This document shows positions 2,794 through 23,218 of a DNA stretch of 24,191 bases, piece by piece. The stretch lies in IMG/VR virus record IMGVR_UViG_2734482770_000005, positions 1 through 24,191 of that record; one strand, written 5' to 3'. A program made the translations under genes and the position numbers. How positions within the stretch are numbered: position 1 is the stretch's first letter; the number at the start of each line of letters is the position of its first letter. The notes beneath the pieces are model-generated. The model was given only the letters and a program-made list of their open reading frames with translations, had not been told where the DNA came from and did no database searches. The DNA comes from a virus (Duplodnaviria; Heunggongvirae; Uroviricota; Caudoviricetes).

Positions 2794-2828
2794 TTGACAA
2801 AAGCCTTTAGTTATGGTAAAGTAATATT
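2794..2828 (+). promoter_or_regulatory. candidate sigma70-like promoter for the + strand gene run
   Basis: Consensus -35 TTGACA at 2794-2799 inside gggggttgacaaaag, with AT-rich -10 candidates downstream (taaagt at 17 bp spacing, taatat further on). About 120 bp upstream of the first well-supported + strand ORF. Confidence 0.3.
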
Positions 2829-2945
2829 AGGGACAGGAAAACATTCCTATCCTCTAAATAATTAAACCAATGCACCGCACTTTGAAGCCCAAGAGGCTTG
2901 CAAGGTGTCTTTTTCTTTTAACCAAATAGAATAGGAGGTTAATTA

Positions 2946-3122
2946 GTGAAGTATTTCACTTCTCAAGATGTAGTTGAAGCCTGGAAACGTGGTGAGATCA
3001 ACCGCTTTAGGGTAAGAATGAATAGGAACACAGCGCGACGCTGTGGTTATCCAGAGCGTGAAAAATGTTTTGACGATGCACTAAAAATTATTGATGAACT
3101 GCGTAAAGCAGAGAAAGAATAA
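2946..3122 (+). CDS. hypothetical small protein (58 aa, GTG start)
   Basis: aggagg ribosome-binding site at 2932-2937, GTG at 2946, in-frame to TAA at 3120-3122; product VKYFTSQDVVEAWKRGEINRF...ELRKAEKE. Absent from the ORF track because of the GTG start. Confidence 0.4.
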   Translation: MKYFTSQDVVEAWKRGEINRFRVRMNRNTARRCGYPEREKCFDDALKIIDELRKAEKE

Positions 3123-3145
3123 TAACAGGAGAAGGAGAAAACCAA

Positions 3146-3334
3146 ATGAATATTAATTTTGATTCTGCAACTTATAACGCGTTGTTAAATCGTGCAAAGG
3201 CAGAAGGGAAATCAATTCCAAAACTTGTTAATGAATTACTAATTACAGTCCTTACAAAGGAGGAACTAAATGATCAAAAATATCAAAACAATTGCCGAAG
3301 CGAAAGCCAAATGTCTAAATCAGAAAGATGGTAA
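3146..3334 (+). CDS. small DNA-binding protein, ribbon-helix-helix (CopG/Arc-like) fold suspected
   Basis: Ribosome-binding site ggagaaggag then ATG at 3146. N-terminal MNINFDSATYNALLNRAKAEGKSIPKLVNELL fits a beta-strand plus helix pattern typical of RHH regulators. The 3' end overlaps the next gene's strong start at 3270. Confidence 0.45.
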   Translation: MNINFDSATYNALLNRAKAEGKSIPKLVNELLITVLTKEELNDQKYQNNCRSESQMSKSERW

Positions 3335-3938
3335 ACAAAAATATGTAGTCGTTGAGCAGTGGTTGAAGATGTTTAAAAAGTGGTTCTCACCGTCAGGTAA
3401 TGAATACACCGCTACACTGCCAGCCGTTGAAATCTATAGCTATATAGCTGGATTCAATGAACAAGGGCAAGAATGTTACGCCACTCAAAAAACATTATCT
3501 AATATTGGAATGGTTAGTGATCGCCAGGTTCGCAATATTATAAATATGTTTGTTGATATGGGAGTTCTTTCTGTAGAGGCTCGGGACGGGCAAACATCAC
3601 TCTATAAAGCATTACCATTCACAGATGCACATATTACTCCCCCTGGAGAGTCATCACTACCTGATCCTTCTGAGAAAGAAGACGAATCTAATGAAATATT
3701 GAATGTTTCCGAAATCATCGTTGAAGAAGAAACACAAGAGCCAGAGTTCCCTGAGCGGCCCGAAATTTTTACTTGGCTTCTTTCCCTTGATAAGAAGAAA
3801 CCACCGCACGAAGAAACAGAAGATTTTGTAAAACGAGCATTAGATTCAAAGAATATCTATCTTTGTGAAAATGATTTTGACTCTTTGATAATTGATCTCA
3901 AAAGTGAGAGCACAATATATGATTCACTACCCTTTTAA
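3270..3938 (+). CDS. hypothetical protein with N-terminal winged-helix-like DNA-binding region and acidic C-terminal tail (222 aa)
   Basis: Strong ribosome-binding site aaaggagg 6 nt upstream of ATG. The segment YATQKTLSNIGMVSDRQVRNIINMFVDMGVLSV looks like an HTH recognition helix; the C-terminus is Glu/Asp-rich. Confidence 0.55.
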   Translation: MIKNIKTIAEAKAKCLNQKDGKQKYVVVEQWLKMFKKWFSPSGNEYTATLPAVEIYSYIAGFNEQGQECYATQKTLSNIGMVSDRQVRNIINMFVDMGVLSVEARDGQTSLYKALPFTDAHITPPGESSLPDPSEKEDESNEILNVSEIIVEEETQEPEFPERPEIFTWLLSLDKKKPPHEETEDFVKRALDSKNIYLCENDFDSLIIDLKSESTIYDSLPF

Positions 3939-3947
3939 GGAGAATAA

Positions 3948-4205
3948 ATGGCTTATAACATCACTATAGGAAACAAAACTATTGAAATAACTGAAAGCGG
4001 ATACAACATTTTAAAAGCTATTTTGGACATAGAGTTCTCACCGCCGACAGTGGTTAGCTTTTGTAGTTTAGGCGGCTACAGCGCACAACACGTCAATCGT
4101 TTTACATCGTTCGGTGTGCTGGATTATGAAGGGATTAACAGCACTACATTTCGTCTTTTGAAATTAAACAAAGATTTTGAATTGTTTCTCACAAACAATC
4201 AATAA
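3948..4205 (+). CDS. hypothetical protein (85 aa)
   Basis: Ribosome-binding site aaggag immediately upstream; tightly packed after the previous gene. Confidence 0.5.
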   Translation: MAYNITIGNKTIEITESGYNILKAILDIEFSPPTVVSFCSLGGYSAQHVNRFTSFGVLDYEGINSTTFRLLKLNKDFELFLTNNQ

Positions 4206-4302
4206 CAACAGATCGGGCAATACATATGGCAAATGCATTTATGGCGATATTCATCGTAACAATGGCGTCCAGTTTTTATAATCCACATAAAAAGAGGGAA
4301 AA

Positions 4303-4686
4303 ATGGGAAGAAAGAAAAAGAACAACTTAAAACGTATTGAAAAAAACAGTAATTTCAATTCAAAAAGACAACGTCCACCGACACACACCAATAACGAAAT
4401 TCCAGGGGAAGAGATAATCTTTATTCTTGAAACAGAATCCCCTGAATTAAGTGATGAAGAATTAGAAATAATCCAATCAATGCCAGGCGTTTACTTTCGC
4501 CCAAGAACAAGAAAACAAACTATCATTTCTGATGGCACTCTGAAACGTTGGCAGCTTTTAGGGTTTAGCTCCTATCATCATTTTTTGGGATTTAACGCTT
4601 TCAATAATTGTGTAGGTGGTGCATCGGAAGTCGATCTGATGGCTCATTTAGAAGATACATTAGCTTCTAACAAACGTTCTAACTAA
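4303..4686 (+). CDS. hypothetical protein (127 aa) with very basic N-terminus
   Basis: agaggg ribosome-binding site upstream of ATG; N-terminus MGRKKKNNLKRIEK... Confidence 0.45.
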   Translation: MGRKKKNNLKRIEKNSNFNSKRQRPPTHTNNEIPGEEIIFILETESPELSDEELEIIQSMPGVYFRPRTRKQTIISDGTLKRWQLLGFSSYHHFLGFNAFNNCVGGASEVDLMAHLEDTLASNKRSN

Positions 4687-4701
4687 TAAAATGATGGGTG
4701 T

Positions 4702-4947
4702 ATGTATAAGCGCCCAATGAAAATATTCAAAAAAGGAAAAATAATGATTGGCTATATTCAAGAAACACAATTATTTCAGATGATCCTGTCTGATGCAAAA
4801 AACTATGCAGAGTTAATTCGGCTGGCAAAAGAAACAGAAGACTACGAAGCATTAGAGCGTTACCGTGATGAAGTGCTGACGCTCAAGACACCTTTTAACA
4901 TCGTATTGAATATGATTAATGATGCATTACAAGGAGAATACGCATAA
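4702..4947 (+). CDS. hypothetical protein (81 aa; alternative start at 4744, MIGYIQ...)
   Basis: ORF in track; the internal ATG at 4744 is preceded by aaaaaggaaaaa. Stop overlaps the start of the next ORF (ATAATGG). Confidence 0.4.
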   Translation: MYKRPMKIFKKGKIMIGYIQETQLFQMILSDAKNYAELIRLAKETEDYEALERYRDEVLTLKTPFNIVLNMINDALQGEYA

Positions 4948-5246
4948 TGGAAGAAGATATTAGCAATGCAATGGAACAACTTTTAGATCTGACTATCTCA
5001 CTACAAACAAGAATAAATCAAGCCTATTCAGATTTATGCGATTACACGCTCTCTCAATGCGTTATTAGCTTAATGAAGGTGAATGTAAGCCTTGACGATT
5101 TTATCTCTCTGGTGAGCGTATCAGAGGACGATGCAAAACAGTGTAATCAAATCATCACAGACATCGCCACCACGTTAAAGGTTGCAAGTGAAGAGATTCA
5201 GCAATTAGTAGATGATTTAGCAAAAAGTGCTATTTTCTCTAAATGA
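4947..5246 (+). CDS. hypothetical protein (99 aa)
   Basis: aaggag ribosome-binding site upstream; start overlaps the previous stop, suggesting an operon. Confidence 0.5.
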   Translation: MEEDISNAMEQLLDLTISLQTRINQAYSDLCDYTLSQCVISLMKVNVSLDDFISLVSVSEDDAKQCNQIITDIATTLKVASEEIQQLVDDLAKSAIFSK

Positions 5247-6188
5247 TAATGAAAATTATTTGCATTTATAATGATTTTGTTATATAATAATTTTAGGGGT
5301 AGATAAAAAGATTTTAGTTGGTGTTAATCCTTCTACTGTCATAAATCCCTGCATATGGAAGGTGATAGCCTCAAAGGTTGAGTGGCATTAACCTCTAACA
5401 AATATTACCTTCCATCTCTCAAGAAGTTTTAGAATAATCATAACTCCCTCTTTGATTGTTGATTGTTTCTACGTTGTGTTGATGAATGTTGTTAGGCATT
5501 GTGCTTAATTTTGATAAAAGCGGGTAGGTGTTATCTCCTTGCCCTTCCCGCTCTTATTTTTCATCTATGCTTATCCTAAAGCTCCTTATTTTGTCAGAAA
5601 ACATTAAAGAGCCTTACACTGATAGTTATATTTTATAACTATTTACTAACATCATTAAACTATTATTTAATGACAGAAGTTAGTAACAGAATAATCTATT
5701 AAGTTGTTGTCAAAAACAATCATCTGCATAGCGTTAGCCGCAAGCAGAGAGAGTTTAGCTAAGAATGGTGCAATAAACTTTGGAAATATTGATAGCAAAA
5801 CGGGTTTTATAGAATGCGGATCTATAAGCTTTGGTTGTAAAAACGATTTTCTGAAACGGTAGATTACTGTTGGTGTAGTTAATCATTATTAAAAATTTAA
5901 TCTGTGAGTAGATTGGAATAGTGATTCCTTAAAATCTGACTGGTGCATCCACACCATGAAAGATAGCGGTTGGCCACCGCGCCCCGAATAGATATTCCTG
6001 ATTGATTCCGCATGTTTTCCTAAGAGCATGTTTTCAGGAGTATCTATTCACCCTTTAAGCATATCATCAAGTATATTTAAAAAGTGTATTTGCTGATATG
6101 TTTAATCCTCTTATAGTTTAACTTATCAATTATGTAATTGCCCGCACGTTAAAGCCCCTTTGCTGGTCAGAATTAACCTCTTACGGCA

Positions 6189-6428
6189 TTGGGGCTTTTT
6201 ATTTGTCTGGCACTAACAGGAACATTATTTATGAAACAAGAAATGATTATCAGCAAAGACGGGGAAACGATGATTGTTAGTGATGAAAACCTCATTAAGG
6301 TTGCCGCACTGTTGGGAGTTACTCCCGAAAGTCTTCGTTCTACCACTGCTCAATTATTTAAATCGGCTGATGCGGTTAGTCTTGCTGATGCCCTTAAATC
6401 TAAAATTAAACAACTGAAAGGAAAATAA
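6189..6428 (+). CDS. hypothetical small protein (79 aa; more likely starts at 6231, MKQEMII..., 65 aa)
   Basis: ORF in track; in-frame ATG at 6231 follows aacaggaac. Confidence 0.45.
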   Translation: MGLFICLALTGTLFMKQEMIISKDGETMIVSDENLIKVAALLGVTPESLRSTTAQLFKSADAVSLADALKSKIKQLKGK

Positions 6429-6432
6429 TCTT

Positions 6433-6816
6433 ATGGCTAACCCATATGGAAAATTAAAAGCAGTGAATGCGGATAACTCCCGTTCACGCTGTAAGGTAGT
6501 AGCTTACGCTGCTGATCCAGTGCTGCAAGATCGCCTCGTCAAACTGGCTTCACCTCTCACTGACGATCTTATTGTCGGGGCTTTGCTGAAAGCCGATGGC
6601 ACCAAAGCAACAACCGCATCTGATATTGCTCACGTAGTAGTTGAACCGGCTTATGAAGGACAGGAAAGCGTAGTGGTTGCACATCCTACTTTCGTTATTC
6701 TGGCTGAAGATGGGATTGAATTTAACAGCATGGAAAAGGCAAGTGTTATTGCAAAACTGCAATCTCTCGGCTTTGTAATTGCTGGTTATGAAGAACTTGC
6801 GATCCCTACGACTTAA
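6433..6816 (+). CDS. hypothetical protein (127 aa), first gene of a structural-like block
   Basis: Ribosome-binding site aaaggaaaa; 4 bp after the previous stop; same strand and tight spacing as following genes. Confidence 0.55.
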   Translation: MANPYGKLKAVNADNSRSRCKVVAYAADPVLQDRLVKLASPLTDDLIVGALLKADGTKATTASDIAHVVVEPAYEGQESVVVAHPTFVILAEDGIEFNSMEKASVIAKLQSLGFVIAGYEELAIPTT

Positions 6817-6830
6817 CAAGGAAAATAATA

Positions 6831-7862
6831 ATGAATGATTTATCAACATATTTTGGCGTTAATACTGCGGTAGTAACTCCATTTGCTTATGAGAATGCAC
6901 TTAATACCCTGATTACTAATCTCGATCTGTTCGATGTGCAATATCATACAGAAAACAGCATTCTTCTTACCGACCTGATTGATCAGTTTGTGCAGGTAGC
7001 TGGGGAAACCTCGCCTTACGCTCAAAGCGACTGGAACGCCTCTAAACGTCAGGAATGGTCAAACAAACTTTTCCAGATGAAACACGTCGGCAGTATTAAC
7101 GCTGTTACTTCTCGTGACCTGGAACAATACAGCCGCCAATATCCAAACCGTTCTGATGCTATGCTGGTAGCGGTTAATGATTTCTCTGAGGCTCATTACC
7201 GTTCACACGCAAACCGTGTTGAAGTGGATCTGATTACCGCGCTGCTGGGCCTGAAAGTTGAATCTGAATATGCCGGACAAGGTGATCTCGACTTCCTCGA
7301 CGGTCAGGCTAAAACCACGGTACCCGCTATCGACTTTGCATCGACTACTGTTAACCCGTTCCTTGCTATTCGTAAAGCGGTGCGCTTACAGAGTGAAAAG
7401 CTGGGGTCTGGTCTTGCTGCAAAGCGAACTGGTGTAATTATCTTTGCTGCTGGCACTGCTGCTGATGGTTTGTCATCTAACCCGCTGATCAGTGACATGG
7501 TGAAATATGCAGGCGATGCGAGTGCTACGGCCCTGTTTACCCGTATGGTTGATTCTAACCCAGCCTATGACTCTTTCCAGATTGGTGGGATCACTGTTAT
7601 TGATGTGTCAATGTTTCCTGAGATTGTTGCTCACATCGGAGAGAACGGTTTCGCAATTGTTCCGGTAATGGATAAAGCGGCACAGTGTTACCAGCTTCAT
7701 AGCGGCGTTGGTGTGCGTCATGCTGAGTTAGGTCAAGATGCCGTGTTGCATCACCAATATCTAATCAAGGATGAATTCCAATTCCCATCTGTGGTTACTG
7801 AGACATCTTATCTGCCAGTAAACAACATTCCGCAAGCTATCATCTTCGGATCTGCTGCGTAA
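6831..7862 (+). CDS. hypothetical protein (343 aa), possible virion or structural component
   Basis: Ribosome-binding site aaggaaaa; long uninterrupted ORF with a different codon and GC profile from the P4 part. No catalytic motif recognised. Confidence 0.6.
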   Translation: MNDLSTYFGVNTAVVTPFAYENALNTLITNLDLFDVQYHTENSILLTDLIDQFVQVAGETSPYAQSDWNASKRQEWSNKLFQMKHVGSINAVTSRDLEQYSRQYPNRSDAMLVAVNDFSEAHYRSHANRVEVDLITALLGLKVESEYAGQGDLDFLDGQAKTTVPAIDFASTTVNPFLAIRKAVRLQSEKLGSGLAAKRTGVIIFAAGTAADGLSSNPLISDMVKYAGDASATALFTRMVDSNPAYDSFQIGGITVIDVSMFPEIVAHIGENGFAIVPVMDKAAQCYQLHSGVGVRHAELGQDAVLHHQYLIKDEFQFPSVVTETSYLPVNNIPQAIIFGSAA

Positions 7863-8013
7863 TAAAGCGTTAATAGACGATTCCCCATCGGGGCAATAAG
7901 GGTAAAGGGATTAACTAACCTGTAGGCGCAAATACAGTAACGAATCTCTTTGCCCTTTTTGTTTTTCTACTGTCTACAAACCCAAATAAAAATATATATG
8001 TGAGAGAAAACCA

Positions 8014-8211
8014 ATGAATACAGAAAACCCACAATCCTTTATTCTTAAGGCTGTAAAAGAACTGGCAGCTATTAGCGAGGAATCAGTTATAAACACATCG
8101 GCGCTTTGCCGCCTTTTAGAAATTGATGCAAATAATGTGCGCCAGCGTGTCTTTCAGACTGGGTGCAGCACTTTCGAAGCAATTCAATACTATTGCTCTA
8201 AAAAACAATAA
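8014..8211 (+). CDS. hypothetical small protein (65 aa)
   Basis: ORF in track in the gap between two larger + strand genes; weak ribosome-binding site. Confidence 0.3.
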   Translation: MNTENPQSFILKAVKELAAISEESVINTSALCRLLEIDANNVRQRVFQTGCSTFEAIQYYCSKKQ

Positions 8212-8245
8212 TAAACAACAATCATAATACAGGGAAACAATTAGC

Positions 8246-10087
8246 ATGTTAGAACTTAACGTCAGCCGCTTATCAAACGTTGTCACCTTCCAGGTTGATC
8301 GACCATCATTAGAGAAAGCAAAAGCAGAAGTAGAAAAACTTCGTAAACAAATGGCGGCGGTGAAAGATATAGAATTGCGTGTTAAGACACATAAACAATC
8401 AACTTCTAAAGCAAAAAAAGACGTAGACGATATTGCTAAAAAGCAAGCACAGGCAGATAAAGCCAATGCTAAAGCACAATTAGCCGCTCAACGTGTAGTT
8501 GCAAGAGAACAAAAAGCCCTGGCAGCACGCAAAGAGAAGGCAGACTTAAAACTGTTAGACGTTGGATCAAGCATTAGTGCATTGCACCGCCTTTCTGTAG
8601 CGGAACAATATAAAGCTATTGCACAGGCTAGAGAAATTGCCCTCCAATATGAAAGAGGAGCTATTAGTCTGGCACGTATGAATAGCCAAATGAAACGCCT
8701 ACAACAGCAACAACGTAAGATTAATGGCAATCGTAACGCTCACGCTAAAGCCTATGCACCTGTTAAGGGTAGCGGGAGTATTGGCGGCGGTGCTGCGGCT
8801 GTTATGCTGGGTGGCTTAGGCGCTGGCGCTACGTATATGGCTATGAGCAAAGCCTCTGAATTTGTTACTAACAGCTTTGCGAATGCTGAAACGCTGGGTG
8901 AATTGTATAGCCGTGCGAAGCTGGGCGGTGTAGACGTTAACCAGATGAACAATATTGAGCAATGGGCCTACAAAAACGGCGTTGATTCAATGATGGGGGA
9001 TCAAGGTAAACGTAAGTATCTCGATCAGATGAAAGATGTGCGTGAGCGTGCAACCAAAAGCTATGATGAGGCTGAATATGTAGTCGATAAAAAAACAGGC
9101 AAAGGTGAATGGAAGGGCGGCGATAGCGGCATCAATACTTTAATGAATGAAGGATTCTTAACTAAAAAGGATCTAAAAGACTTTGCTGATAATCCGGCTG
9201 GTCTGGTTAGTAAAGCAGTTCAGGGAATGGTGAAGAAAGGCTATTCAGATGCACAAATCGGTAGTCGTCTGGAAGATCTGGCTGATGATTTGATGCTCAC
9301 CTCTAAATACTGGACACGCTCCGCTAAAGAAGTGGAACAATCAGCACGAGAACAACGAGAATCAGGGCGCTGGGTAACACAGGCACAACAGGAAAGCGTT
9401 ATTAAATTCCGTGAACTGAATAATGCACTTAGTGGGCTTTCTGACTCACAAGGGATCGCCTTTGTTGATGGCTTTATGAAATCTCTTGATCCGAAAGTGA
9501 TTGAAGAGTTTAAAAAGAGCATGGTTGCAATGCTGCCAATGTTTACCAAATTAGGCGAGGCTATCGGCGGATTGGTTAACGCCGTAATGAAAACAATCAA
9601 CTGGCTGATGAAAAACGACGAGAAGACGGAAGCTATTCAGAAGAATTTAGGGGATGCACCGCCACTATCTAACGAAGGAATGAAGCAGAATCTTTCTAAT
9701 CTCACTCCTGATCAATATAAAGGCGCTGGCACCGGAACAACTAAGCCAGATAACAGCAATTCCCTGGTTAACACTATTAAAAGCTGGTTTATGCCAGAAG
9801 AAACGGTAGGTGGGGCGCAGGCTGTAAATCAATACAGTCTCGAAGGACAAAACATTGCAAATCTGAAACAGAGTGCAGCACAACAAGCTTTCAAGGCTCC
9901 TTCTTACACCTTTGCACCTGTTATTAACTTCAATCCAGAATTACAAGTAAATGCAGAAGTGCCGCTAACTATCGAATCAGACACCGGACGATTGAGCGAA
10001 TTTATCGACTTCAAATCAAAGGCATCCTCCGCTGAGTTTAGCAAGCTATTAACGCTGGGTGTTATGTCAGGCGGGTCAACCTATTAA
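8246..10087 (+). CDS. large coiled-coil protein with Gly/Ala-rich hydrophobic segment (613 aa); tape-measure-like or membrane-associated structural protein
   Basis: N-terminal 150 aa are Lys/Ala/Gln/Glu-rich heptad-like sequence (EKAKAEVEKLRKQMAAVK..., KAQLAAQRVVAREQKALAARKEKADLK); then GSGSIGGGAAAVMLGGLGAGATYMAM, a glycine-zipper-like hydrophobic stretch. Confidence 0.6.
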   Translation: MLELNVSRLSNVVTFQVDRPSLEKAKAEVEKLRKQMAAVKDIELRVKTHKQSTSKAKKDVDDIAKKQAQADKANAKAQLAAQRVVAREQKALAARKEKADLKLLDVGSSISALHRLSVAEQYKAIAQAREIALQYERGAISLARMNSQMKRLQQQQRKINGNRNAHAKAYAPVKGSGSIGGGAAAVMLGGLGAGATYMAMSKASEFVTNSFANAETLGELYSRAKLGGVDVNQMNNIEQWAYKNGVDSMMGDQGKRKYLDQMKDVRERATKSYDEAEYVVDKKTGKGEWKGGDSGINTLMNEGFLTKKDLKDFADNPAGLVSKAVQGMVKKGYSDAQIGSRLEDLADDLMLTSKYWTRSAKEVEQSAREQRESGRWVTQAQQESVIKFRELNNALSGLSDSQGIAFVDGFMKSLDPKVIEEFKKSMVAMLPMFTKLGEAIGGLVNAVMKTINWLMKNDEKTEAIQKNLGDAPPLSNEGMKQNLSNLTPDQYKGAGTGTTKPDNSNSLVNTIKSWFMPEETVGGAQAVNQYSLEGQNIANLKQSAAQQAFKAPSYTFAPVINFNPELQVNAEVPLTIESDTGRLSEFIDFKSKASSAEFSKLLTLGVMSGGSTY

Positions 10088-10134
10088 TCATCACTGTGGG
10101 GCTGTTTAGCCCCCTTAAATAAGGATTACAAATT

Positions 10135-10812
10135 ATGGCAATGGGTCCGTTAACCATTGGTCGCCCGACTGAGGCGAAAATCAACAGCACAAGCAACGAT
10201 AGCAACGGTAGAACAACCAAAGGGGGTAACGGCTTTGCGATCATTACCTCTAATCTCGGCAGTGGTGCAAATGCTGCTTACAATGACTACCAGGCATTAT
10301 CATTTGATAGCGTGGAATCGACGAAAGTTAGCAGAAATGCGGACGTTACAAGCTATGCCGTCGAATCAGGATCAGAAGTTAGTGATCATGTTCAAATACG
10401 GAATAACAAGTTCACATTACAAGGGCGTATCTCTGAAACCGTATTGAAGCTCAATCCTGATATGATTAAGAATGCTGGAATTAACGGCAATCGACGTATG
10501 CTTATGCTTGAATACCTAAATCAGTTGATGGACAGTCGCCAACCTTTCCTACTTGTCACTGAGTTAAAAAATTATGACAACGTTGTGTTAGTTGGCATGT
10601 CTTACGAAGAAGAAGCAAGCGAAAGCCTATTGTTTACTCTTGATTTTGAGCAAATCCGTCTTGTCTCTAAAGCAACTACAAGCGCAATTGCGGTAAAAAC
10701 AGCACCAAATAAATCTGTAGGAGGCCAGGTTAAAATGCAGGTAAATACAACAGAACAGAAAAATCAAAAAAGCCCAGGGCAAGACGTTGTAACGCCAGTA
10801 TTTAAACAATAG
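10135..10812 (+). CDS. hypothetical protein (225 aa)
   Basis: aagga ribosome-binding site; follows the 613 aa gene after a short hairpin-containing gap. Confidence 0.55.
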   Translation: MAMGPLTIGRPTEAKINSTSNDSNGRTTKGGNGFAIITSNLGSGANAAYNDYQALSFDSVESTKVSRNADVTSYAVESGSEVSDHVQIRNNKFTLQGRISETVLKLNPDMIKNAGINGNRRMLMLEYLNQLMDSRQPFLLVTELKNYDNVVLVGMSYEEEASESLLFTLDFEQIRLVSKATTSAIAVKTAPNKSVGGQVKMQVNTTEQKNQKSPGQDVVTPVFKQ

Positions 10813-10853
10813 CCTTAAACGCCTATGAAACGCTCTGTAACGAGATAATCATA

Positions 10854-10885
10854 AAAGAGGCATCAGTCTATATTGAAGCCTCTTT
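10854..10885. terminator. hairpin between convergent genes, candidate intrinsic terminator (best fit for the - strand integrase transcript)
   Basis: Perfect 8-bp stem aaagaggc / gcctcttt around a 16-nt loop; on the - strand the stem is followed by a U-rich run (uuuuaugauuau). Confidence 0.4.
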
Positions 10886-10892
10886 ATTACGT

Positions 10893-12257
10893 CTATAGCG
10901 TTGTTTTACGCCTTAAATTTGATTTTTTATTGATTGATAAGCCTTTCTCTATTTCAGGGTAGCGTAAAAGCTCAATATATTTTTTAAGCTCTATTGGAGA
11001 AGCTGCATTTTTGCTATATGTGCGGAATGTTTCTGTATTGCCGCGTGTATGGCCCAGGAGAAGGGCGATCCTGTCTTCTGGAATTTGATTTCGATCAAGA
11101 AGCTGTGCTACTCCGTGTCTCAGAGAATGAAACACTTTCCTTTCTGTTCCCTTTTCCCCTAAAGCCTTTCGTTTAGCTCTTGTAAATCGTTGTGTATGCC
11201 ACGTAGAGCGTTTACCGTCAGCACGTTCTGTAATGCTGGCGTGATAGAACAAAAAGCCATTGTGAGGCTTTTCACGCAGCGACAACACCAACGGAGTGAT
11301 AAGGTTATGCACAGGCACAACACGTGCCGCAGCTTTCGTCTTTCCCTGTGTGATTTCAAAACACAGCACACCTTCGATCTCTTTCACATCGTCTATTGTG
11401 AGACTTGCTATCTCATTGATCCGCATACCTGTATATAAACCGATAAGACACAAAGCCGTCATTTCTTTGTTTTCTGCTGAATTACCGGAAAATACTTGCA
11501 ACACCTGCAATAGCTCTTTGTTAGAAAATGCCTCGTAGCTCTCTCTACTTTGTGCCACATCAAGCCTATGCCCTCGCCAGGGGGAGAGCGCCCTTTCTGG
11601 CGCATCGTGGTAACGTGATGAAGCTAATTCCCATAGCTGGGCCATTGGACTGATATAATTTGCAATTGATTGTTGTGAAAGAGTTTTTTGCATGTGTTCA
11701 ATCCAGCCTGTAACAGTGGTGCGGCTTACATCTTGCAATGCAATATCAGGCTTTTTACGGTAGGAGAGAAACATCTCTACCGCTTTTCTTGCCTTAGCTA
11801 AAGTGGCTGGCTTCTTCTTCGTGCTGTTAATTGTCAGGTAGATTTCAAGAATTTTAAGCAATGACGGACACGAAGACGCTGTATCTTGCACTCTGGTAGC
11901 TGTTTTGGCGTATTTAGCCTTACTGCGTAACAGTTCCAGCGTGTTTTCTATTGTGCTGTTTACAGGGGCAACACTCTCCCGTAAGCAATGGTATTCATCT
12001 GCAATCTGATCACGCTTTCTACGTGCAACACGAAGATTACTTGTGTGTAGACTTCTGACAAACGTCCTTTTTCCTTCAAAAAAGGGCTGCATATACACAG
12101 GCAGCGTGATCCTTAAATAGTAGTTACCGTAAGAATCACAGATTAAGTATTGGTTAGGCTTGTATCTCATAAAATCTCCGGCTAAAGTGTCGGAGCGTTT
12201 GTAATGTGAAAATTGATTGTGACGCATAGAAAATGATGATTTTTCTATAAGATTCAA
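10893..12257 (-). CDS. tyrosine recombinase / phage-type integrase (454 aa)
   Basis: C-terminal catalytic region carries integrase signatures: GMRINEIASLTIDDV, HSLRHGVAQLL (H-x-x-R box) and LLGHTRGNTETFRTYSKN (tyrosine nucleophile region). Confidence 0.8.
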   Translation of the reverse strand: MNLIEKSSFSMRHNQFSHYKRSDTLAGDFMRYKPNQYLICDSYGNYYLRITLPVYMQPFFEGKRTFVRSLHTSNLRVARRKRDQIADEYHCLRESVAPVNSTIENTLELLRSKAKYAKTATRVQDTASSCPSLLKILEIYLTINSTKKKPATLAKARKAVEMFLSYRKKPDIALQDVSRTTVTGWIEHMQKTLSQQSIANYISPMAQLWELASSRYHDAPERALSPWRGHRLDVAQSRESYEAFSNKELLQVLQVFSGNSAENKEMTALCLIGLYTGMRINEIASLTIDDVKEIEGVLCFEITQGKTKAAARVVPVHNLITPLVLSLREKPHNGFLFYHASITERADGKRSTWHTQRFTRAKRKALGEKGTERKVFHSLRHGVAQLLDRNQIPEDRIALLLGHTRGNTETFRTYSKNAASPIELKKYIELLRYPEIEKGLSINKKSNLRRKTTL

Positions 12258-12314
12258 TCAATTAGTAATGGTCGTAGGTGATGGCATTAACACGAGATTA
12301 ATCGAGTGTTTTAC

Positions 12315-12332
12315 TCCTATTATCGGCACCAT
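12315..12332. repeat. candidate attL core of the P4-like element (direct repeat of 23639-23655)
   Basis: tcctattatcggcaccat here matches tcctattatcgcaccat at 23639-23655 with one 1-nt indel; both copies sit at the expected outer edges (int side and crr side). Confidence 0.4.
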
Positions 12333-12495
12333 CTCCACTTCTTCAAACATCCGTATTTATCCATAACCGCACTGTTTTATAAAAGATTTTTTGTTTTTAC
12401 TGTTCGTATTAGTCCATAACTTTCCAGTAGAATCCAGTACTAAATGTGTATAGGATTATGTATATGTTCCTGTTCGATTTTGGAATTCTATACAC

Positions 12496-13680
12496 ATGCC
12501 CCTAAATGATATGCAGATTCGCCGTGCTAAACCTGAAGCTAAAGCCTATACACTTGGGGATGGGCAAGGGTTGTCTTTACTTGTAGAGCCAAATGGAAGT
12601 AAAAGCTGGCGATTTCGTTATCGCTATGCCGGTAAACCCAAAATGATCTCGCTTGGTGTTTACCCAACGATCACTCTTGCTGATGCTCGTTCCCGTCGTG
12701 ATGAAGCTCGAAAACTTGTGGCAGAAGGAAAGAACCCTAGTGAGGTTCGAAAAGAGCAAAAGCTGGCTCTGCAAACAGAGTCAGAGAACGCCTTCGAAAA
12801 GATAGCCAGAGAGTGGCATCAACAGAAGTCTACCAAATGGTCGGCGGGATATGCATCAGACATCATGGAAGCGTTTAAGAACGACATTTTTCCTTATGTG
12901 GGAACAAGGCCAGTGGGAGAGATTAAACCGCTAGAACTGCTTAATGTGCTGCGTAAAATCGAAAAGCGCGGTGCATTAGAAAAAATGCGCAAAGTTCGGC
13001 AGCGATGCTCAGAAGTTTTCCGCTATGCCATTGCTACTGGAAGGGCTGAGTTTAACCCTGCTGCGGATCTTTCAAGCGCCCTCAATGTACACCAATCAAA
13101 TCATTTCCCGTTCTTAAAGGCTAATGAGATACCTGATTTTCTTCGCGCCTTAAACGGATATACCGGAAGTCGGCTTGTCCTGATTGCCACGAAATTGCTC
13201 ATGATTACAGGTGTTAGAACCATCGAATTACGTGCGGCATTATGGTCAGAATTTGATTTAGATAACGCTATTTGGGAAATTCCTGCTGAAAGGATGAAAA
13301 TGCGCAGATCACACCTTGTGCCTTTGTCGACTCAAGCGTTAGATTTGCTAAATGAACTCAAGATGATGACAGGGAAGTATAGTTATGTTTTTCCGGGGCG
13401 GAACGATCCGAACAAGCCTATGAGTGAGGCGAGTATTAACCAAGTTATCAAGCGTATTGGTTATGGTGGAAAACTTACTGGTCATGGATTTCGACATTCC
13501 TTATCTACTATCCTCCACGAAAAAGGATATGATTCGGCTTGGATAGAAATACAGCTTGCTCATATAGATAAGAATAATATTAGAGGTACGTATAATCATG
13601 CTCAATATATTGATAAACGCCGTGATATGATGCAGTGGTATTCAGATTATATTTTTATTAAGGAGAATGTGAATGAGTAA
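12496..13680 (+). CDS. int: P4-type tyrosine integrase (394 aa)
   Basis: N-terminal arm-binding region typical of P4/CP4-57 integrases (MQIRRAKPEAKAYTLGDGQGLSLLVEPNGSKSWRFRYRYAGK); C-terminal catalytic motifs HGFRHSLSTIL and LAHIDKNNIRGTYNHAQYIDKRRDMMQWY. Confidence 0.9.
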   Translation: MPLNDMQIRRAKPEAKAYTLGDGQGLSLLVEPNGSKSWRFRYRYAGKPKMISLGVYPTITLADARSRRDEARKLVAEGKNPSEVRKEQKLALQTESENAFEKIAREWHQQKSTKWSAGYASDIMEAFKNDIFPYVGTRPVGEIKPLELLNVLRKIEKRGALEKMRKVRQRCSEVFRYAIATGRAEFNPAADLSSALNVHQSNHFPFLKANEIPDFLRALNGYTGSRLVLIATKLLMITGVRTIELRAALWSEFDLDNAIWEIPAERMKMRRSHLVPLSTQALDLLNELKMMTGKYSYVFPGRNDPNKPMSEASINQVIKRIGYGGKLTGHGFRHSLSTILHEKGYDSAWIEIQLAHIDKNNIRGTYNHAQYIDKRRDMMQWYSDYIFIKENVNE

Positions 13681-15301
13681 CGAGTTTGATAGTAGTAAAC
13701 TAGAAAATTGCTTTGAGCTTGCATTGGAAAATATTATAAAGCACGGCGATACAGATATTTTCCCTTACCCATTTGAAAGTCGGTTATTTGAAGATGATAA
13801 GGAGAAAGTAAAAACTGCATTAATGCAAACATTTAATGACTTTGAAAATAAAAGGATCGAGATTCCACCAAACATAATTAATAGCTTTTCAAGTATTGGT
13901 TATTATGGTTACAGGTGGGCGACCCAAATTGATCCATTCTGGAATGCTTTTTTTCTTGGGTTAGTTTTAAAAATCGCTGATGATATTGAAAGGAATAGAT
14001 CTACTAAAACGCAGGTTTATTCATATCGCTTTAAACCAAACCTTGCTGATGGTTCTCTTTTTGATAAAGAGATCTCTTGGAGAAAATATCAAGAAGACAG
14101 TATCTCTGAATGTTCTAACGATGAAATAAAGTATGTACTTACATGCGATATAGCAGATTTCTATCCGCGTATTTATCACCACCGTTTAGAAAATGCGTTA
14201 GATAGAGTCGACCCCAATAAAGATTACTCTGGGAAAATCAAGAAATTACTACAGACATTTAGTGAAACAAAATCATATGGAGTACCAGTTGGATGTCCTG
14301 CCTCTAGAATATTAGCAGAACTAGCTCTAGATTCTATTGATAAATTATTGTCTATGAATAGAATCAACTATAAGCGTTATGTCGACGACTTTGTTATTTT
14401 TTGTAACTCTAGAGAGGATGCTCATAAGATTTTAACTTTGCTTAGTAAAAAACTGATGGAAAATGAAGGGCTAACTTTACAGAAACAAAAAACCAATATT
14501 GTTACTAAAGAAGAGTTCCTTTCAGTAACTAAAGCTAAGTTGCATGGTAATGATGAAGATGAAGAATCTCCTATGAAGGCTAAATTTATGAGTCTTCCTA
14601 TAAGATTCGATCCTTACTCAGCAAATGCGATAGAGGAATATGAAGAGATAAAGGAATCTTTAAAAGATTTTGACTTGTTAGCTATGCTGAGTAGTGAGTT
14701 ACAAAAATCAAAAATTAACCAATCTTTTAGCAAGCATTTGATAAAGGCATTCTCAGCAACATCAGATGAAATAATAAGTAGTGCTTTCAAAGTAATGTTT
14801 AATAACTTGCATGAGTTATATCCAATATTTACAACTATAATTCAAGTAGCTAACTCCAACTGGCAAAAATTAAGCACAGAAACCAAAGATATTATTCTTG
14901 ATAAAATAACTGCACTAATTAAACAAGATTCATATATTTTGAGTACTGAGCTCAACTTAGCCTATGTAGCCCGAATGCTCTCAAAAGAAAATTCAGAAAA
15001 ATCCACCCTAATCCTTAGTGAAATATACAATAACAATCCAGAAAGCATCTTAGTCAAGAACATAGTTACACAGTCAATGGCAAAAATTAATTCTTACGCA
15101 TGGCTTTCTGATATCAAAAAAAATTTCTCTGCAATGCATCCGTTGCAGAGAAGACTATTGATCGTTTCCAGTTACATCTTAGGTGATGAAGGACGGCACT
15201 GGAGAGAGCATAATAAGAAAACATTCAACTTTGTAGAGGTGATTTACAGGGATTGGGCAAGTAAAAGGCATACCGCAAGAAATCTTGAGGATGCGCTATG
15301 A
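13673..15301 (+). CDS. reverse transcriptase (542 aa) with helical C-terminal extension; non-retron, non-intron defence-type RT suspected
   Basis: RT motif A CDIADFYPRIYHH, motif B SYGVPVGCPASRILAELALDSID, motif C with catalytic YVDD (YKRYVDDFVIF). Start overlaps the int stop by 8 nt with aagga ribosome-binding site. GC is visibly lower than in neighbouring P4 genes. Confidence 0.85.
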   Translation: MSNEFDSSKLENCFELALENIIKHGDTDIFPYPFESRLFEDDKEKVKTALMQTFNDFENKRIEIPPNIINSFSSIGYYGYRWATQIDPFWNAFFLGLVLKIADDIERNRSTKTQVYSYRFKPNLADGSLFDKEISWRKYQEDSISECSNDEIKYVLTCDIADFYPRIYHHRLENALDRVDPNKDYSGKIKKLLQTFSETKSYGVPVGCPASRILAELALDSIDKLLSMNRINYKRYVDDFVIFCNSREDAHKILTLLSKKLMENEGLTLQKQKTNIVTKEEFLSVTKAKLHGNDEDEESPMKAKFMSLPIRFDPYSANAIEEYEEIKESLKDFDLLAMLSSELQKSKINQSFSKHLIKAFSATSDEIISSAFKVMFNNLHELYPIFTTIIQVANSNWQKLSTETKDIILDKITALIKQDSYILSTELNLAYVARMLSKENSEKSTLILSEIYNNNPESILVKNIVTQSMAKINSYAWLSDIKKNFSAMHPLQRRLLIVSSYILGDEGRHWREHNKKTFNFVEVIYRDWASKRHTARNLEDAL

Positions 15302-16038
15302 TATCTGAATTAACGTTTTCTCGAAAATTCACTTCATTTTGGAATCAATTGCTTCCAAATGCTAATAATTTCATACGCATCATTAACGGCAGTCTCATCG
15401 AGGACGTTTATCCTCCTCTAGATGACTGCGCTAATAGGTCAAATAACGTCTTTGTTAATGAGTGCGCATTTAATTTATATAGGGCAATACAGAATGATTC
15501 GTTAGACAGAAATATTCTTTCAGCACATGATATCTTCCATAATGCTGATTTTCAGGTTGTTTTTGAAAAAACAAAAGAATATCTACAGCGGTTCGCTTAC
15601 GGTTCTAACTTCAAGCTACCCTTAAGCATGGTTGAGTACAATGCCATAAGGGAAATAGCAAGAAACATTTTGTCTCGATATGGAATGGAAAACCAAATTG
15701 AAGTGTCTCCACAATTCGATGGATGCGGAGTAATAAATAATTCATATGGCGATATTTATTATTCAAATGTTCTTGTGGAAATAAAATCAGGAGATAGGAA
15801 GTTTAGTGTTTACGATCTTAGACAGGTGCTAATATATTTCACTTTAAACTTTTACTCAAAAAACAAAAGAAACATCAAGAGATTTGAGCTTTTCAATCCT
15901 CGGATGGGTATCACTTATAGTGATACCATTGTCAACCTTTGCAAAGAGTTGGCGTTTATTCAACCTGAAGAATTGTACTTTGAGATAATGAATTCTATTA
16001 CAGAAGAAAATTTCATAGTAACTGAAATGCAACGCTAG
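15298..16038 (+). CDS. RT-associated accessory protein (246 aa), putative effector; function unknown
   Basis: ATGA start/stop overlap with the RT gene (translational coupling). Soluble, no obvious transmembrane segment. Weak motifs: R-x5-H (DRNILSAHD) and D-x11-E-x-K (GDIYYSNVLVEIK). Confidence 0.6.
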   Translation: MISELTFSRKFTSFWNQLLPNANNFIRIINGSLIEDVYPPLDDCANRSNNVFVNECAFNLYRAIQNDSLDRNILSAHDIFHNADFQVVFEKTKEYLQRFAYGSNFKLPLSMVEYNAIREIARNILSRYGMENQIEVSPQFDGCGVINNSYGDIYYSNVLVEIKSGDRKFSVYDLRQVLIYFTLNFYSKNKRNIKRFELFNPRMGITYSDTIVNLCKELAFIQPEELYFEIMNSITEENFIVTEMQR

Positions 16039-16047
16039 ATATCATGC

Positions 16048-16340: not shown

Positions 16341-16913
16341 TTACACAGACTGACGTGATGCCAGTTGCGCACTTTTACGCGAAAAAATCATGTTCTGCGC
16401 AGGGGTGAATTTTTCACGGCTGTCATCCACCGAAGCCGCGTCAGGCCTGAATCCGATGGTCGTTAAAATGTCGCTATCCTGTGCGGAATAATTAATTTTT
16501 TCCCCCTTCGCAAGCCAGGACAGAAGGGCTTCACGCAGGGCATCTGTGGCACGCTGTATGGCACAGTTTCGGGCAATGGCCGTCAGCTCACTGTAGCCCA
16601 TCAGCTCCGGTGCCAGTGCGGCCGCCAGTACTGTGCCGTGCTGCTGCATAAAATCATTCAGCCGGTCGCGGATGCTGATGTGCTGAACGGCTTCATGCGA
16701 ACGAATATAACGACCGGCGGCCTGATTCACCTGCCATTTTCTGACTTCGATAATATTGCGTAATTCGTCCAGGCGGCTGACGTTTCTGCCTTCTCCTGAC
16801 AGAAGCCGCAGATATTCCTGTTCGGCCGCTGCCAGCTCATTTTTGCGTTGCAGCCATGCTGCTTTGTTATTCTGACAGGTGTCAAAGGCCTGCTGTAAGG
16901 CTGTGCTTTCCAT
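16341..16913 (-). CDS. psu: P4 Psu (polarity suppression / capsid decoration protein), 190 aa
   Basis: 190 aa, the P4 Psu length; the sequence MESTALQQAFDTCQNNKAAWLQRKNELAAAEQEY... matches P4 Psu as I recall it; position immediately 5' of delta and sid on the same strand. Confidence 0.8.
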   Translation of the reverse strand: MESTALQQAFDTCQNNKAAWLQRKNELAAAEQEYLRLLSGEGRNVSRLDELRNIIEVRKWQVNQAAGRYIRSHEAVQHISIRDRLNDFMQQHGTVLAAALAPELMGYSELTAIARNCAIQRATDALREALLSWLAKGEKINYSAQDSDILTTIGFRPDAASVDDSREKFTPAQNMIFSRKSAQLASRQSV

Positions 16914-16986
16914 CGTTATCTCTTTCTCATCATGCTGAAGAATAAAAATACGGTGTGCGGCGACGGCCGGTGTTAACCGGCAGCCC

Positions 16987-17487
16987 TCATTCCAGACGCA
17001 GCGAATATGATTGTGTTTTTAAGCGTACTGGCGGCAGTTCCTGTTTTTCATGCAGGCTTTCTGCCAGTTCGTCCGGCGTGACCGGGCGGACAATGAAGCG
17101 GTTGATGGTCTGAAGCGTTTTAAACACCAGACCACAGCCCGGATCCGTGCACACATAAAAACGCTCGGTGACTTCCTGAGACAGACGCCGCGATGTTCTT
17201 GACAGTGCAAGGCCTTTACATCTCCGACAACAATATCCGGTAACAAGCATTCTTTTCGGGCGTTTCATACTGCCGGAGGCTGACGTCAGTGAATCGCGGT
17301 ATCTCTGTTTGCCTGAAATGTATTCCATTCCTGAATCTTTACAGTCAGAGAAAAAGCTTTCACTCGCTTCAAATGTCGCAGAGCAATAAATATTCCGGCA
17401 CTGTGCAATCATTATCTTGGTGCCATCGTCCATGAAATGTGCGCGACGGGTGTGAGCAACATGTCCACACGACGGGCAGTAAATCAT
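16987..17487 (-). CDS. delta: P4 Delta late-gene activator (Ogr/Delta zinc-finger family), 166 aa
   Basis: Two Cys-rich Ogr-like modules (CPSCGHVAH...CRNIYC and CCRRCKG...CTDPGC); 166 aa as in P4 Delta; overlaps the sid stop by 4 nt. Confidence 0.85.
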   Translation of the reverse strand: MIYCPSCGHVAHTRRAHFMDDGTKIMIAQCRNIYCSATFEASESFFSDCKDSGMEYISGKQRYRDSLTSASGSMKRPKRMLVTGYCCRRCKGLALSRTSRRLSQEVTERFYVCTDPGCGLVFKTLQTINRFIVRPVTPDELAESLHEKQELPPVRLKTQSYSLRLE

Positions 17488-18218
17488 GACAGCAGTCCTC
17501 TGGCCTTAAGCTCTGCTCCCTGCTGGTCTATTTTGTCCTGCCACACCTTGCGCTGTGCCGGTGTGCCTGCCACCTCATAATCCATGTGCGGGAGTGTTGC
17601 CGCTGACAGTCCGGTCAGCCGGAGAACCGGCTCGCCGGTGAGGCTGATTTGCATCTGTTTTATTTTCTGTTCCAGCGATGATTTCACCTGCTGCATGACA
17701 GCTTTATCGGGTGCGACGTAGCCCTGATGGCCGGTGGTGTTGGCGAGCGGATTTTCCTGTACCAGGATGCTCAGATGCATTGCCCGGACAAGCGCCTCAC
17801 AGGTTTCATTCAGGGCGTGTTCCAGCTCATTCTCTGCATACAGACTCAGAAGGTGATGATGTGCCTTCCGGTAGGCGGTGGCCGTGCTGTCACACGCCCC
17901 TTTCAGGCGTTCACGTTCAAAATTCAGCACCACGGCCAGATTGTCATATTCCTGTACCAGCTCCCGGCGTGCCACGCGCTCAATGTGGCGCTGTTTCAGC
18001 TCGTCGCTCAGGACACCACCGGCTGCACGAAAGGCCGTGCGCCAGTCGTCAGCGTCGTTTCCGTCGGCCTGCGCCAGCGCATTTTTTTCCTGCTCTGCCC
18101 GTTCAATGGCCGTGACGGTCTCATCCATCAGGCGGGCGTTCTCAAGATGGGCGGCTCTGGCCTTTTCCAGTTGTGCCAGCGCGGGTTGCAGATATTCAGG
18201 GATGGTGTTGTCAGACAT
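17484..18218 (-). CDS. sid: P4 Sid (capsid size determination external scaffold), 244 aa from MSDNTIPEY
   Basis: The track ORF 17484-18284 extends upstream of the likely start; the ATG at 18218 is preceded by aggagccggaaa and gives 244 aa (the P4 Sid length as I recall it). The protein is largely helical and coiled-coil-like. Confidence 0.8.
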   Translation of the reverse strand: MSDNTIPEYLQPALAQLEKARAAHLENARLMDETVTAIERAEQEKNALAQADGNDADDWRTAFRAAGGVLSDELKQRHIERVARRELVQEYDNLAVVLNFERERLKGACDSTATAYRKAHHHLLSLYAENELEHALNETCEALVRAMHLSILVQENPLANTTGHQGYVAPDKAVMQQVKSSLEQKIKQMQISLTGEPVLRLTGLSAATLPHMDYEVAGTPAQRKVWQDKIDQQGAELKARGLLS

Positions 18219-18290
18219 TTTCCGGCTCCTCGTCACTTCAGGTTGAGAAAATTGTGACGTACACCGGACAACAACACGACGCATTGCAGA

Positions 18291-18769: not shown

Positions 18770-19036
18770 ATGCAAGCTGTTTTTTCTTCCCCGTCTCCTG
18801 CCCCTGTGACGCCACTGATGCCGCTGCCGGACATCACGCAGGAGCGTTTTTTACGTCTGCCGGAAGTGATGCACCTGTGCGGCCTGTCACGCTCGACCAT
18901 CTATGAACTCATCCGTAAGGGGGAATTTCCGCCGCAGGTGAGCCTTGGCGGTAAAAATGTGGCCTGGCTGCACTCTGAAGTCACTGCATGGATGGCCGGG
19001 CGCATTGCCGGACGCAAACGGGGGTACGACGCATGA
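18770..19036 (+). CDS. AlpA/Vis-family small transcriptional regulator (88 aa; alternative start at 18815, MPLPDITQ...)
   Basis: Typical AlpA-family sequence: [47 protein letters not shown]. Confidence 0.75.
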
Positions 19037-19130
19037 TGATGCCCGCTCTGCAAAAAGTCCCTTTTTCTGGCTTGCCTTTTTCCGGCATTTGCGGATATAG
19101 TTTTTCCGCTGCCGCAAAATCGGCAGCCGG

Positions 19131-19422
19131 GCGTGAGAACCCGGGCAATCTAACGGCGACATATGACGCGCCATGCGTCTTTTTTTGTGTCGCAATCAAC
19201 GCCACAGAGCGCCAGATTATGGTGTGGTGTGTGGTCAGTCGTGCAGATGGCACTCCGTGCATCCTGCCCGCGTCCGCTCATTATGCCGCAGAGTCAATGG
19301 TAGCTCAGGCGGGGCAGCCTCCGGGCTGGCCGGTATCCGTTAGAGCCGGTATTCTCACCCCCGTCTGGGCTATCGCCATCGAGCGTGAGAACTCCGGCGA
19401 TAGCGTAACCTGCTATCTAACG
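19131..19422 (+). ncRNA. putative P4-type immunity-RNA region (seqA / seqB / seqC-like arrangement)
   Basis: Direct repeats gcgtgagaacccgggcaatctaacgg (19131-19156) and gcgtgagaactccggcga...ctatctaacgg (19383-19422) flank ccgttagagccgg (19337-19349), which is complementary to the ccggc...tctaacgg part of both repeats. No well-supported protein ORF covers the interval. Confidence 0.3.
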
Positions 19423-19435
19423 GAGGCTGCCATCA

Positions 19436-19632
19436 TGGCTACAACCCTTACCCCCTCACACCCTGAATTTGTCTTTGTGTTTGCCGCTGTCCGTCGCGCA
19501 GACCGCCATCCCCGTATCTGTATGCTTCGCACCGTCGCCGGTGATGAACGCAGCGCCCGCCGTTCCCTTGTCCGTGACTATGTGCTCTCCCTTGCTGCCC
19601 GTCTGCCGGTTGTGGAGGTGTCCCGTGCGTAA
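19436..19632 (+). CDS. hypothetical small protein (65 aa) in the P4 left-operon region
   Basis: ATG at 19436 preceded by ggagg; in frame with track ORF 18988-19632, whose upstream part looks like a GC-rich spurious extension. Confidence 0.3.
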
Positions 19633-23204: not shown

Positions 23205-23218
23205 CATCCCTGAATCCC

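Follow-up and report, generated by a model that had tools for sequence, protein, structure and literature searches.

The 24,191-nt stretch analysed here (the window; IMG/VR record IMGVR_UViG_2734482770_000005) maps, by comparison with annotated genomes, to the proA-thrW / yagP-paoD chromosomal locus of Escherichia coli, and very probably consists of two independent integrative elements arranged in tandem at the 3' end of thrW, a tRNA-Thr(CGU) gene. The array is read as thrW / element A (12.9 kb) / core copy / element B (11.3 kb) / decayed core copy / yagP-paoD. Each element has its own tyrosine integrase adjoining its own attachment (att) site, and each carries a copy of the tRNA 3' end, so that the tRNA gene is rebuilt upon integration. 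The anatomy of the array, its junctions and the independent occurrence of each element were observed directly in this analysis. Element B, a P4-like satellite of P2-type phages, is complete and has a DRT8 defence system as cargo. For element A, the gene content and the DNA links to virulent Stephanstirmvirinae myoviruses make a satellite, or an anti-phage parasite, of these phages the most likely identity. Feature coordinates are collected in Table 1.

Anatomy of the array and its junctions

No genome in the collection matched the window over its whole length, the best match reaching 91% coverage at 97.3% identity. Strain EC12 (L001) is 99.5% identical over window positions 1-12400 and places an intact thrW outside the window, some 606 bp before its first base. 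The 3' end of thrW is present in three direct copies, namely the tRNA gene itself (in EC12) and two fragments at window positions 12313-12332 and 23639-23655, both of which lie on the same strand as the tRNA. At 12313-12333 the window reads ACTCCTATTATCGGCACCATC, which repeats the final 20-21 nt of thrW without a mismatch; 0 matches are expected by chance (100 shuffles). To the right of 23639-23655 the chromosomal flank is identical to that of the empty site.

The junction at 12313-12332 consists of the right arm of A, the thrW core and the left arm of B (alignment of sites), and the junctions of the array are exact recombinants of the arms found in strains that carry a single element. The empty site of strain BL21 reads ...GTTCGACTCCTATTATCGGCACCAT / ttaaatcaag.... 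In an A-only strain, caagaaaatc... comes directly after the tRNA, and ...cgagtgttttACTCCTATTATCGGCACCAT / taaaatcaaag stands at the far end. A B-only strain has ctccacttcttc... after the tRNA and ...aatattcaTTCCTATTA(T/A)CG-CACCAT / taaaatc at the far end. To the left of the core, the distal site of A has GAGTGTTTTAC in place of the T-arm GTAGGTTCGAC. The attP sequences were taken as ...GTTTTACTCCTATTATCGGCACCATCAAGAAAATC... for A (A right arm, core and A left arm) and ...ATATTCATTCCTATTATCGGCACCATCTCCACTTC... for B. The two unrelated integrases, IntA and IntB, use a common core of 18-20 bp.

The distal thrW fragments are decayed, with one G lost and a T to A change in some strains (window 23639-23655; L002 10619-10636; L007 18421-18439). 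Such decay is expected because selection acts on the tRNA copy only. An A-only O104:H4 strain also has a distal copy without this G, which could fit a former B that was later excised, and could equally reflect independent decay or recombination in the flank.

Site states across E. coli genomes

Of 5,426 complete E. coli genomes, 416 carry the gene for IntA together with its att arm. This gene is missing from K-12 and BL21, and element A is present or absent as a unit when strains are compared. For IntB, gene and att arm occur together in 476 genomes, about 111 of which carry them at an identity of at least 95%; the rest have a relative at 80-90% identity, O157:H7 among them. By annotation, the site is empty in BL21, occupied by A alone in M23314 and O104:H4, and occupied by B alone in ZH49. 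The A-B junction of the window was found in 29 genomes, many of which form clonal sets. The reverse B-A junction, constructed from the right arm of B, the core and the left arm of A, was found at full length in two genomes, and strain A7 is annotated as thrW, a P4-like element, an A-like element and yagP. Because all site states and both orders occur, A and B are independent and either is able to adjoin the tRNA gene.

These states give a clear answer to the comparison suggested in the initial annotation: A and B occur independently of each other, and the left integrase is not core genome, which would have refuted that annotation. The annotation had offered two descriptions of the arrangement, one element inserted beside or into the attachment region of the other and an island built by successive integrations, and both fit the junctions and site states.

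The two integrases and the gap between them

The initial annotation had been made from the sequence alone, and described two tyrosine integrase open reading frames (ORFs) of different families, at 10893-12257 (minus strand) and 12496-13680 (plus strand), diverging from an AT-rich gap that holds a candidate attL and should also hold the end of the left element. The coordinates are right, both ORFs are intact and encode tyrosine recombinases by Pfam, and a BLASTP comparison of the two proteins was not significant (E = 0.71). The proposed attL is confirmed as the exact copy of the thrW 3' end, and alignment of the junctions to A-only strains shows that the 12313 site is also the right end of A. 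The description of the left gene needed revision. A length of 454 amino acids (aa) does correspond to a maximal ORF opening at a TTG at 12257, but the start is most likely the ATG at 12170, which gives 425 aa. This ATG is the RefSeq start, it has GGAG five bases ahead of it, and IntA homologues are 405-425 aa long. Since the left gene starts at 12170, the gap spans 12171-12495 and is 325 bp long instead of 238 bp.

IntA contains DUF6538, Phage_int_SAM_5 and Phage_integrase domains (Pfam; 876 homologues), which identifies it as a DUF6538-type tyrosine integrase. In an alignment with the XerC-like protein 4a8e its GMR, HSLRH, LLGH and RTY motifs fall on the catalytic residues (R, H-x-x-R, H and Y, respectively). 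IntB contains Arm-DNA-bind_3, Phage_int_M and Phage_integrase domains (Pfam), as P4/CP4-type integrases do; its closest solved domains are those of CPS-53 and CP4-like integrases, and in the B-only strain thrW is followed immediately by its gene. The int gene lies at the tRNA-distal end of A and at the tRNA-proximal end of B, and in both elements it reads inward. A is nearest the tRNA in the window, and the int genes therefore diverge across the A arm, the core and the B arm. This head-to-head geometry arises only with A next to the tRNA.

Relatives of element A and its insertion at other sites

The gene order o127a, 127-aa ORF, capsid, o65, tape measure, (Dit) and integrase is kept, at a similar element size, in E. 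coli, Klebsiella, Citrobacter, Buttiauxella, Phytobacter, Kluyvera, Scandinavium and Raoultella. The A-type capsid gene also occurs in Kosakonia, Cronobacter, Enterobacter and Pluralibacter, which brings the family to at least 12 genera of Enterobacteriaceae. In Klebsiella, A is located at tRNA-Gly(CCC) between 21-bp flanking repeats that are 12,689 bp apart. Matches to the capsid gene in IMG/VR comprised isolate-derived prophage calls and one 46-kb metagenome contig only, which says nothing on packaging.

A whole copy of A, with three IS3 insertions, was found on the IncF plasmid NZ_CP126938.1 (L037 2596-20186). The insertion lies downstream of sopB in a tandem array of 43-bp units, which it divides into stretches of 9.7 and 2.6 repeats. 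We take this array to be sopC, the centromere of F. The plasmid is conjugative, and the insertion splits the partition site. The junctions read ...ACTCATATT / ATCGGCACCAT... and ...ACTCCTATT / GTTAGTCTG..., and they place the crossover in the shared TATT at the boundary of the T-stem and the acceptor stem. This insertion also shows that IntA accepts a target with no more than a resemblance to the tRNA.

Order of arrival

We infer that B was resident first and that A then integrated into the rebuilt tRNA gene, and that this happened at least twice. The same truncated form of B, with a partial delta and no sid, is found alone in ZH49, beside a window-type A in EC12 and beside a diverged A in an O39:H21 strain. 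The diverged allele differs strongly from the A of the window, with 63% identity in the tape-measure protein, 59% in the Dit-like protein and a capsid protein that cannot be aligned by BLASTP. Arrival of B first is the simplest reading because the truncated B occurs both alone and beside two very different A alleles.

The same array would also result from the reverse history, with A resident and a P4-like element entering the distal thrW fragment at the right end of A. The resulting map would be identical, a perfect core is kept at the distal site of the A-only strain M23314 (L003), and carriers of A are common (416 genomes). We regard this history as rather unlikely, since the distribution of the truncated B fits an older B, the distal site of A lacks the normal T-arm sequence, and in the B-A order B adjoins the tRNA, so that B does use the intact gene.

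Several points count against our account of the array and of how it formed. Entry of B into the distal site of A would yield the same map, and because IntA accepts a 13/18 match at sopC, target stringency cannot decide the order of arrival. The G missing from the distal core of B might impair excision of B, and the activity of IntA and IntB in the window strain is predicted. Public viral and metagenome contigs gave no match to the attP junction that an excised circle of A would have. The window does not itself contain thrW, whose position comes from near-identical genomes.

That A and B form one composite element with two integrases, moving as a 24-kb unit, is largely refuted and scarcely credible: 29 genomes do have the A-B junction, and co-occurrence exceeds a naive expectation of about 8.5 genomes (our own arithmetic from the counts, using only IntB copies of at least 95% identity), but many of the 29 are clonal, either element can be found by itself at this site, with clean junctions, the reverse order exists, differing A alleles and B cargo are combined, and A moves alone to tRNA-Gly and to a plasmid.

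Gene content of element A

From one att core to the other, the whole of element A spans 12,926 bp, and its left end lies outside the window, about 606 bp beyond base 1. The major capsid protein was assigned to the HK97 fold, and all of its top Foldseek matches in the PDB are capsid proteins; the AlphaFold model behind this search is of low confidence (pLDDT 57.6) and was used for fold class only. The tape-measure-like and distal tail (Dit)-like proteins are encoded next to each other, to the left of the IntA gene. The ratio of non-synonymous to synonymous substitutions (dN/dS) is 0.16 for the tape-measure gene and 0.14 for the IntA gene, indicating purifying selection. Searches of the A proteins against Pfam and PHROG gave no match to a terminase, portal, sheath, tube, protease, connector, alpA or primase. 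PADLOC and Rfam recognised nothing in element A. A 127-aa ORF occupies the position of a head-decoration gene; it was considered as a homologue of the decoration protein of phage ESCO5 and rejected, as the comparison was not significant.

The left part of A may hold a replication module. A long non-coding region contains three iteron-like repeats, a candidate replication origin, and a Klebsiella relative has an analogous set of five repeats. An HTH_36 protein encoded downstream resembles a replication initiator. Several small ORFs are present besides the named genes.

The accessory serine invertase gene is absent from the A copy of M23314 and is thus dispensable. Klebsiella relatives have a 186-aa tyrosine recombinase at the same position (L009 3835-4395), and this swap of recombinases hints at an invertible switch. 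No inversion of a DNA segment was found among the four A copies compared. A 157-aa ORF at 654-1127 (plus strand) runs antisense to the invertase gene; its translation is of low complexity and rich in Arg, Ser and Ala, and it is almost certainly not a gene.

Links of element A to Stephanstirmvirinae phages

The Dit-like protein of A is 53% identical to the product of the gene that directly follows the tape-measure gene in the Phapecoctavirus ESCO5. The tape-measure proteins of A and ESCO5 are 25% identical over 535 columns, and 15 of their first 22 residues are identical. The capsid protein has weak similarity to the ESCO5 major head protein, of which it is a distant relative. When all A proteins were compared with the whole ESCO5 genome, matches were obtained for the tape-measure and Dit-like proteins only.

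Links were also found in the DNA itself. Positions 3132-3298 are 98% identical to a small gene of phage PaulScherrer (Bas60), and positions 3365-3682 match a part of gp053 from phage Mt1B1_P17 at 93.6% identity, with matches in muut/inny as well. These patches imply that A and these virulent phages have recombined recently. The phage-like non-coding stretch at 633-715 occurs in many Phapecoctavirus genomes, in several of them near the record ends, and is also kept in a diverged A allele whose flanking sequences cannot be aligned. It could be a packaging site, an origin or a promoter mimic. A structured RNA was considered here and rejected, as fold z-scores of +0.6 and +0.9 on the two strands indicate no structure.

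The capsid of the window allele had no tblastn match in phage records, and that of the diverged allele (L008 12098-13126) matched only Pseudomonas myovirus capsids from genomes of 92-99 kb, at 25% identity. Recent copying from a known helper therefore does not explain the capsid gene of A. Because the capsids of the two alleles are unalignable while the tape-measure and Dit-like proteins stay 59-63% identical, the capsid module has apparently been swapped independently. Phage tRNA genes were examined as possible mimics of the att site and rejected, since the 3' ends of the ESCO5 tRNA-Thr and tRNA-Gly genes do not match the att cores. Our literature search found no paper on element A, none linking satellites to Stephanstirmvirinae (Phapecoctavirus, rV5 or phAPEC8), and none naming the RefSeq proteins of A.

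What element A may be

Element A is integrative, has less than a full set of virion genes and has specific genetic links to Stephanstirmvirinae, as is generally the case for satellites and their helpers. Our tentative reading is that A represents an undescribed family of satellites of about 13 kb that exploits virulent Stephanstirmvirinae of about 150 kb (Phapecoctavirus and Justusliebigvirus). It would build or modify virions with its own HK97 capsid, tape-measure and Dit-like proteins, replicate from an iteron origin and insert into tRNA-Thr or tRNA-Gly by means of its DUF6538 integrase. The window would then hold two satellites with two different helpers at one tRNA gene.

An alternative that we consider unlikely is that A is a mobile anti-phage island that is not itself packaged, its capsid, tape-measure and Dit-like proteins acting as dominant-negative decoys that poison Stephanstirmvirinae assembly. 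The structural genes of A do correspond to single helper components and not to the full set, and satellites or islands that disturb capsid or tail assembly are known, Tai (PMC11364771) being one case. PADLOC, however, recognises nothing in A, and A looks like a transmissible satellite: the two copies measured from att repeat to att repeat both keep a size of about 12.7-12.9 kb, and the element retains an integrase and a replication-like module. Interference and transfer are also not mutually exclusive.

It is less probable still that A is a decaying prophage remnant, kept by chance and neither a functional mobile element nor a satellite. A remnant would account for the small number of virion-type genes, for the lack of terminase, portal, sheath and tube genes, for the insertion sequences in some copies and for the failure to find an excised form among viral and metagenome contigs. 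It does not sit easily with a compact gene order and size kept across eight genera, with the same architecture in diverged alleles, or with the low dN/dS of the tape-measure and IntA genes. The insertion at a secondary site on a plasmid and the DNA patches that are 93-98% identical to circulating phages also argue against decay, and a satellite of Stephanstirmvirinae remains our preferred, if tentative, interpretation of A.

Element B

The core set of P4-like genes defined by SatelliteFinder is present in full within 12496-23164, comprising the integrase, Psu, Delta, Sid, an AlpA-type regulator, Ash/epsilon and the alpha primase. The element also encodes a DUF5375 protein. The P4 immunity RNAs were identified with Rfam at 19095-19380, with the C4 antisense RNA, its a1/b1 targets and isrK, and they overlap the ORF with the Ash domain. 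Near the right end of the element there are two 121-nt direct repeats, which resemble the crr region of P4.

The cargo lies between int and psu and was identified as DRT8 from a Drt8-class reverse transcriptase with an adjacent PD-(D/E)XK partner. In strain A7 the same slot is annotated with an ATP-dependent nuclease and a UvrD-family helicase, which are possibly a Gabija-like pair.

Table 1. Features of the window, in order of position
Feature	Position	Strand	Basis or remark
Element A, part in window	1..12332		thrW 3'-end direct repeats at L001 9390 and 22316
Non-coding stretch of ~80 bp	633..715		81% identical to Phapecoctavirus intergenic stretch (ESCO5 nt 24-104)
Hin/Gin-type serine invertase, accessory	719..1276	-	Pfam Resolvase 1e-38, PHROG DNA invertase
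Three 22-nt direct repeats, iteron-like, in long non-coding region	1834..1935		Candidate replication origin
HTH_36 protein resembling replication initiator	3270..3938	+	HTH_36; weak PHROG initiator matches 3.6e-06
127-aa protein in head-decoration position	6433..6816	+	Gene order only
HK97-fold major capsid protein	6831..7862	+	Homologues carry PF03864; Foldseek
Tape-measure-like protein, 613 aa	8246..10087	+	PHROG 16051 3e-34
Dit-like tail/baseplate protein	10135..10812	+	Pfam Dit_like 1e-27
IntA, DUF6538-type tyrosine integrase of element A, 425 aa	10893..12170	-	Pfam, RefSeq, homologues
Int-proximal arm of A att site, including palindrome 12289-12310	12171..12312		Same arm at attR in A-only strains
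thrW 3'-end copy, hybrid att	12313..12332	+	attR of A and attL of B
Int-proximal arm of B att site, with 16-nt direct repeats 12352-12367 and 12405-12420	12334..12495		Same arm directly after thrW in B-only strain
IntB, P4/CP4-type tyrosine integrase of element B, 394 aa	12496..13680	+	Pfam
DRT8 defence system (reverse transcriptase and PD-(D/E)XK partner), between int and psu	13673..16038	+	PADLOC Drt8 4.9e-166, RTasPDDEXK 5.5e-69
P4 capsid-hijacking genes psu, delta and sid	16341..18284	-	Pfam Psu, Ogr_Delta; PHROG 6165
AlpA/Vis-like regulator and Ash/epsilon	18770..19632	+	Element B domain searches
P4 alpha primase-helicase	20831..23164	+	Pfam, PHROG
Two 121-nt direct repeats rich in GGTGAACA/TGTTCACC motifs	23217..23519		Just inside right end of B
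Distal decayed thrW 3'-end copy (TCCTATTATCG-CACCAT, one G missing)	23639..23655	+	attR of B, end of array

Significance

Tandem integration at a tRNA hot spot is an ordinary and known phenomenon, and thrW is already known as such a hot spot. The window is useful mainly as a clean, resolved example of such an array: the site is seen in four states and the elements in both orders, the junctions are exact, and a natural insertion at a secondary site maps the crossover. Element A matters more than the pair of integrases, as it belongs to an apparently undescribed family with the hallmarks of phage satellites that is tied to large virulent coliphages. If our reading of A is true, it would be the first reported satellite of the Stephanstirmvirinae, which are common virulent coliphages and have entered collections put together with therapy in mind. 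It would also be the first type of satellite known to have its own tape-measure and distal-tail genes, and it would affect how the host range of phages, resistance and gene transfer are seen for complete E. coli genomes with IntA, which make up roughly 8%. Current satellite finders model four families and miss elements like A.

Comparison with known systems

Element A resembles the cf-PICI and PLE/PICMI satellites in being an integrative element of about 13 kb with its own HK97-fold capsid gene, a replication-like module and a specific phage group. With PLE and PICMI it also shares virulent phages as helpers, which in the case of A are candidates. A differs from cf-PICIs in having no portal, protease, head-tail connector or terminase gene, and from PICIs in having no alpA/pri-rep module. 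None of the four families modelled by SatelliteFinder has tape-measure or Dit proteins among its markers, and A fits none of the four.

At the same tRNA gene, CP4-6 of K-12 (integrase IntF) is like A in its thrW target and in having int at the far end, on the minus strand and next to yagP. It is unlike A in its integrase and cargo, which are unrelated, and in its repeat, which is longer, at about 48 nt, and begins at the anticodon loop (L005 34197-35756). IntA was considered as a homologue of IntF and rejected, the identity being only 24% and confined to the catalytic part. Hence thrW is hit by at least three integrase families at two crossover positions.

Element B shares int, psu, delta, sid, alpA/vis, ash/epsilon, alpha, the C4 RNA and the crr-like repeats with P4 and P4-like satellites. 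The integration site of P4 is leuX. B differs from P4 in its location at thrW, its DRT8 cargo and the missing G of its distal att core. In its size of 11.3 kb and the presence of a defence system between int and psu, B agrees with the P4-like satellites, which are well described (Moura de Sousa & Rocha, PMC8628076, PMC10085698).

As a whole, the window falls in a recognised class, the tandem arrays at tRNA genes, of which 125 were found among 3,919 islands with Islander (Hudson, Lau & Williams 2015, PMC4383910). It has the features by which such arrays are defined, namely an intact tRNA gene at one end, an integrase and a direct tRNA-gene (tDNA) fragment for each island, independent members and an empty site. 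Like the Islander arrays, it combines a tRNA gene at one end with an integrase and a displaced 3' tDNA fragment for each island, and its crossover belongs to the T-stem-region class. It differs from them in that integrases of unrelated families share one core, that both orders are found in nature, and that both members appear to be satellites of different helpers.

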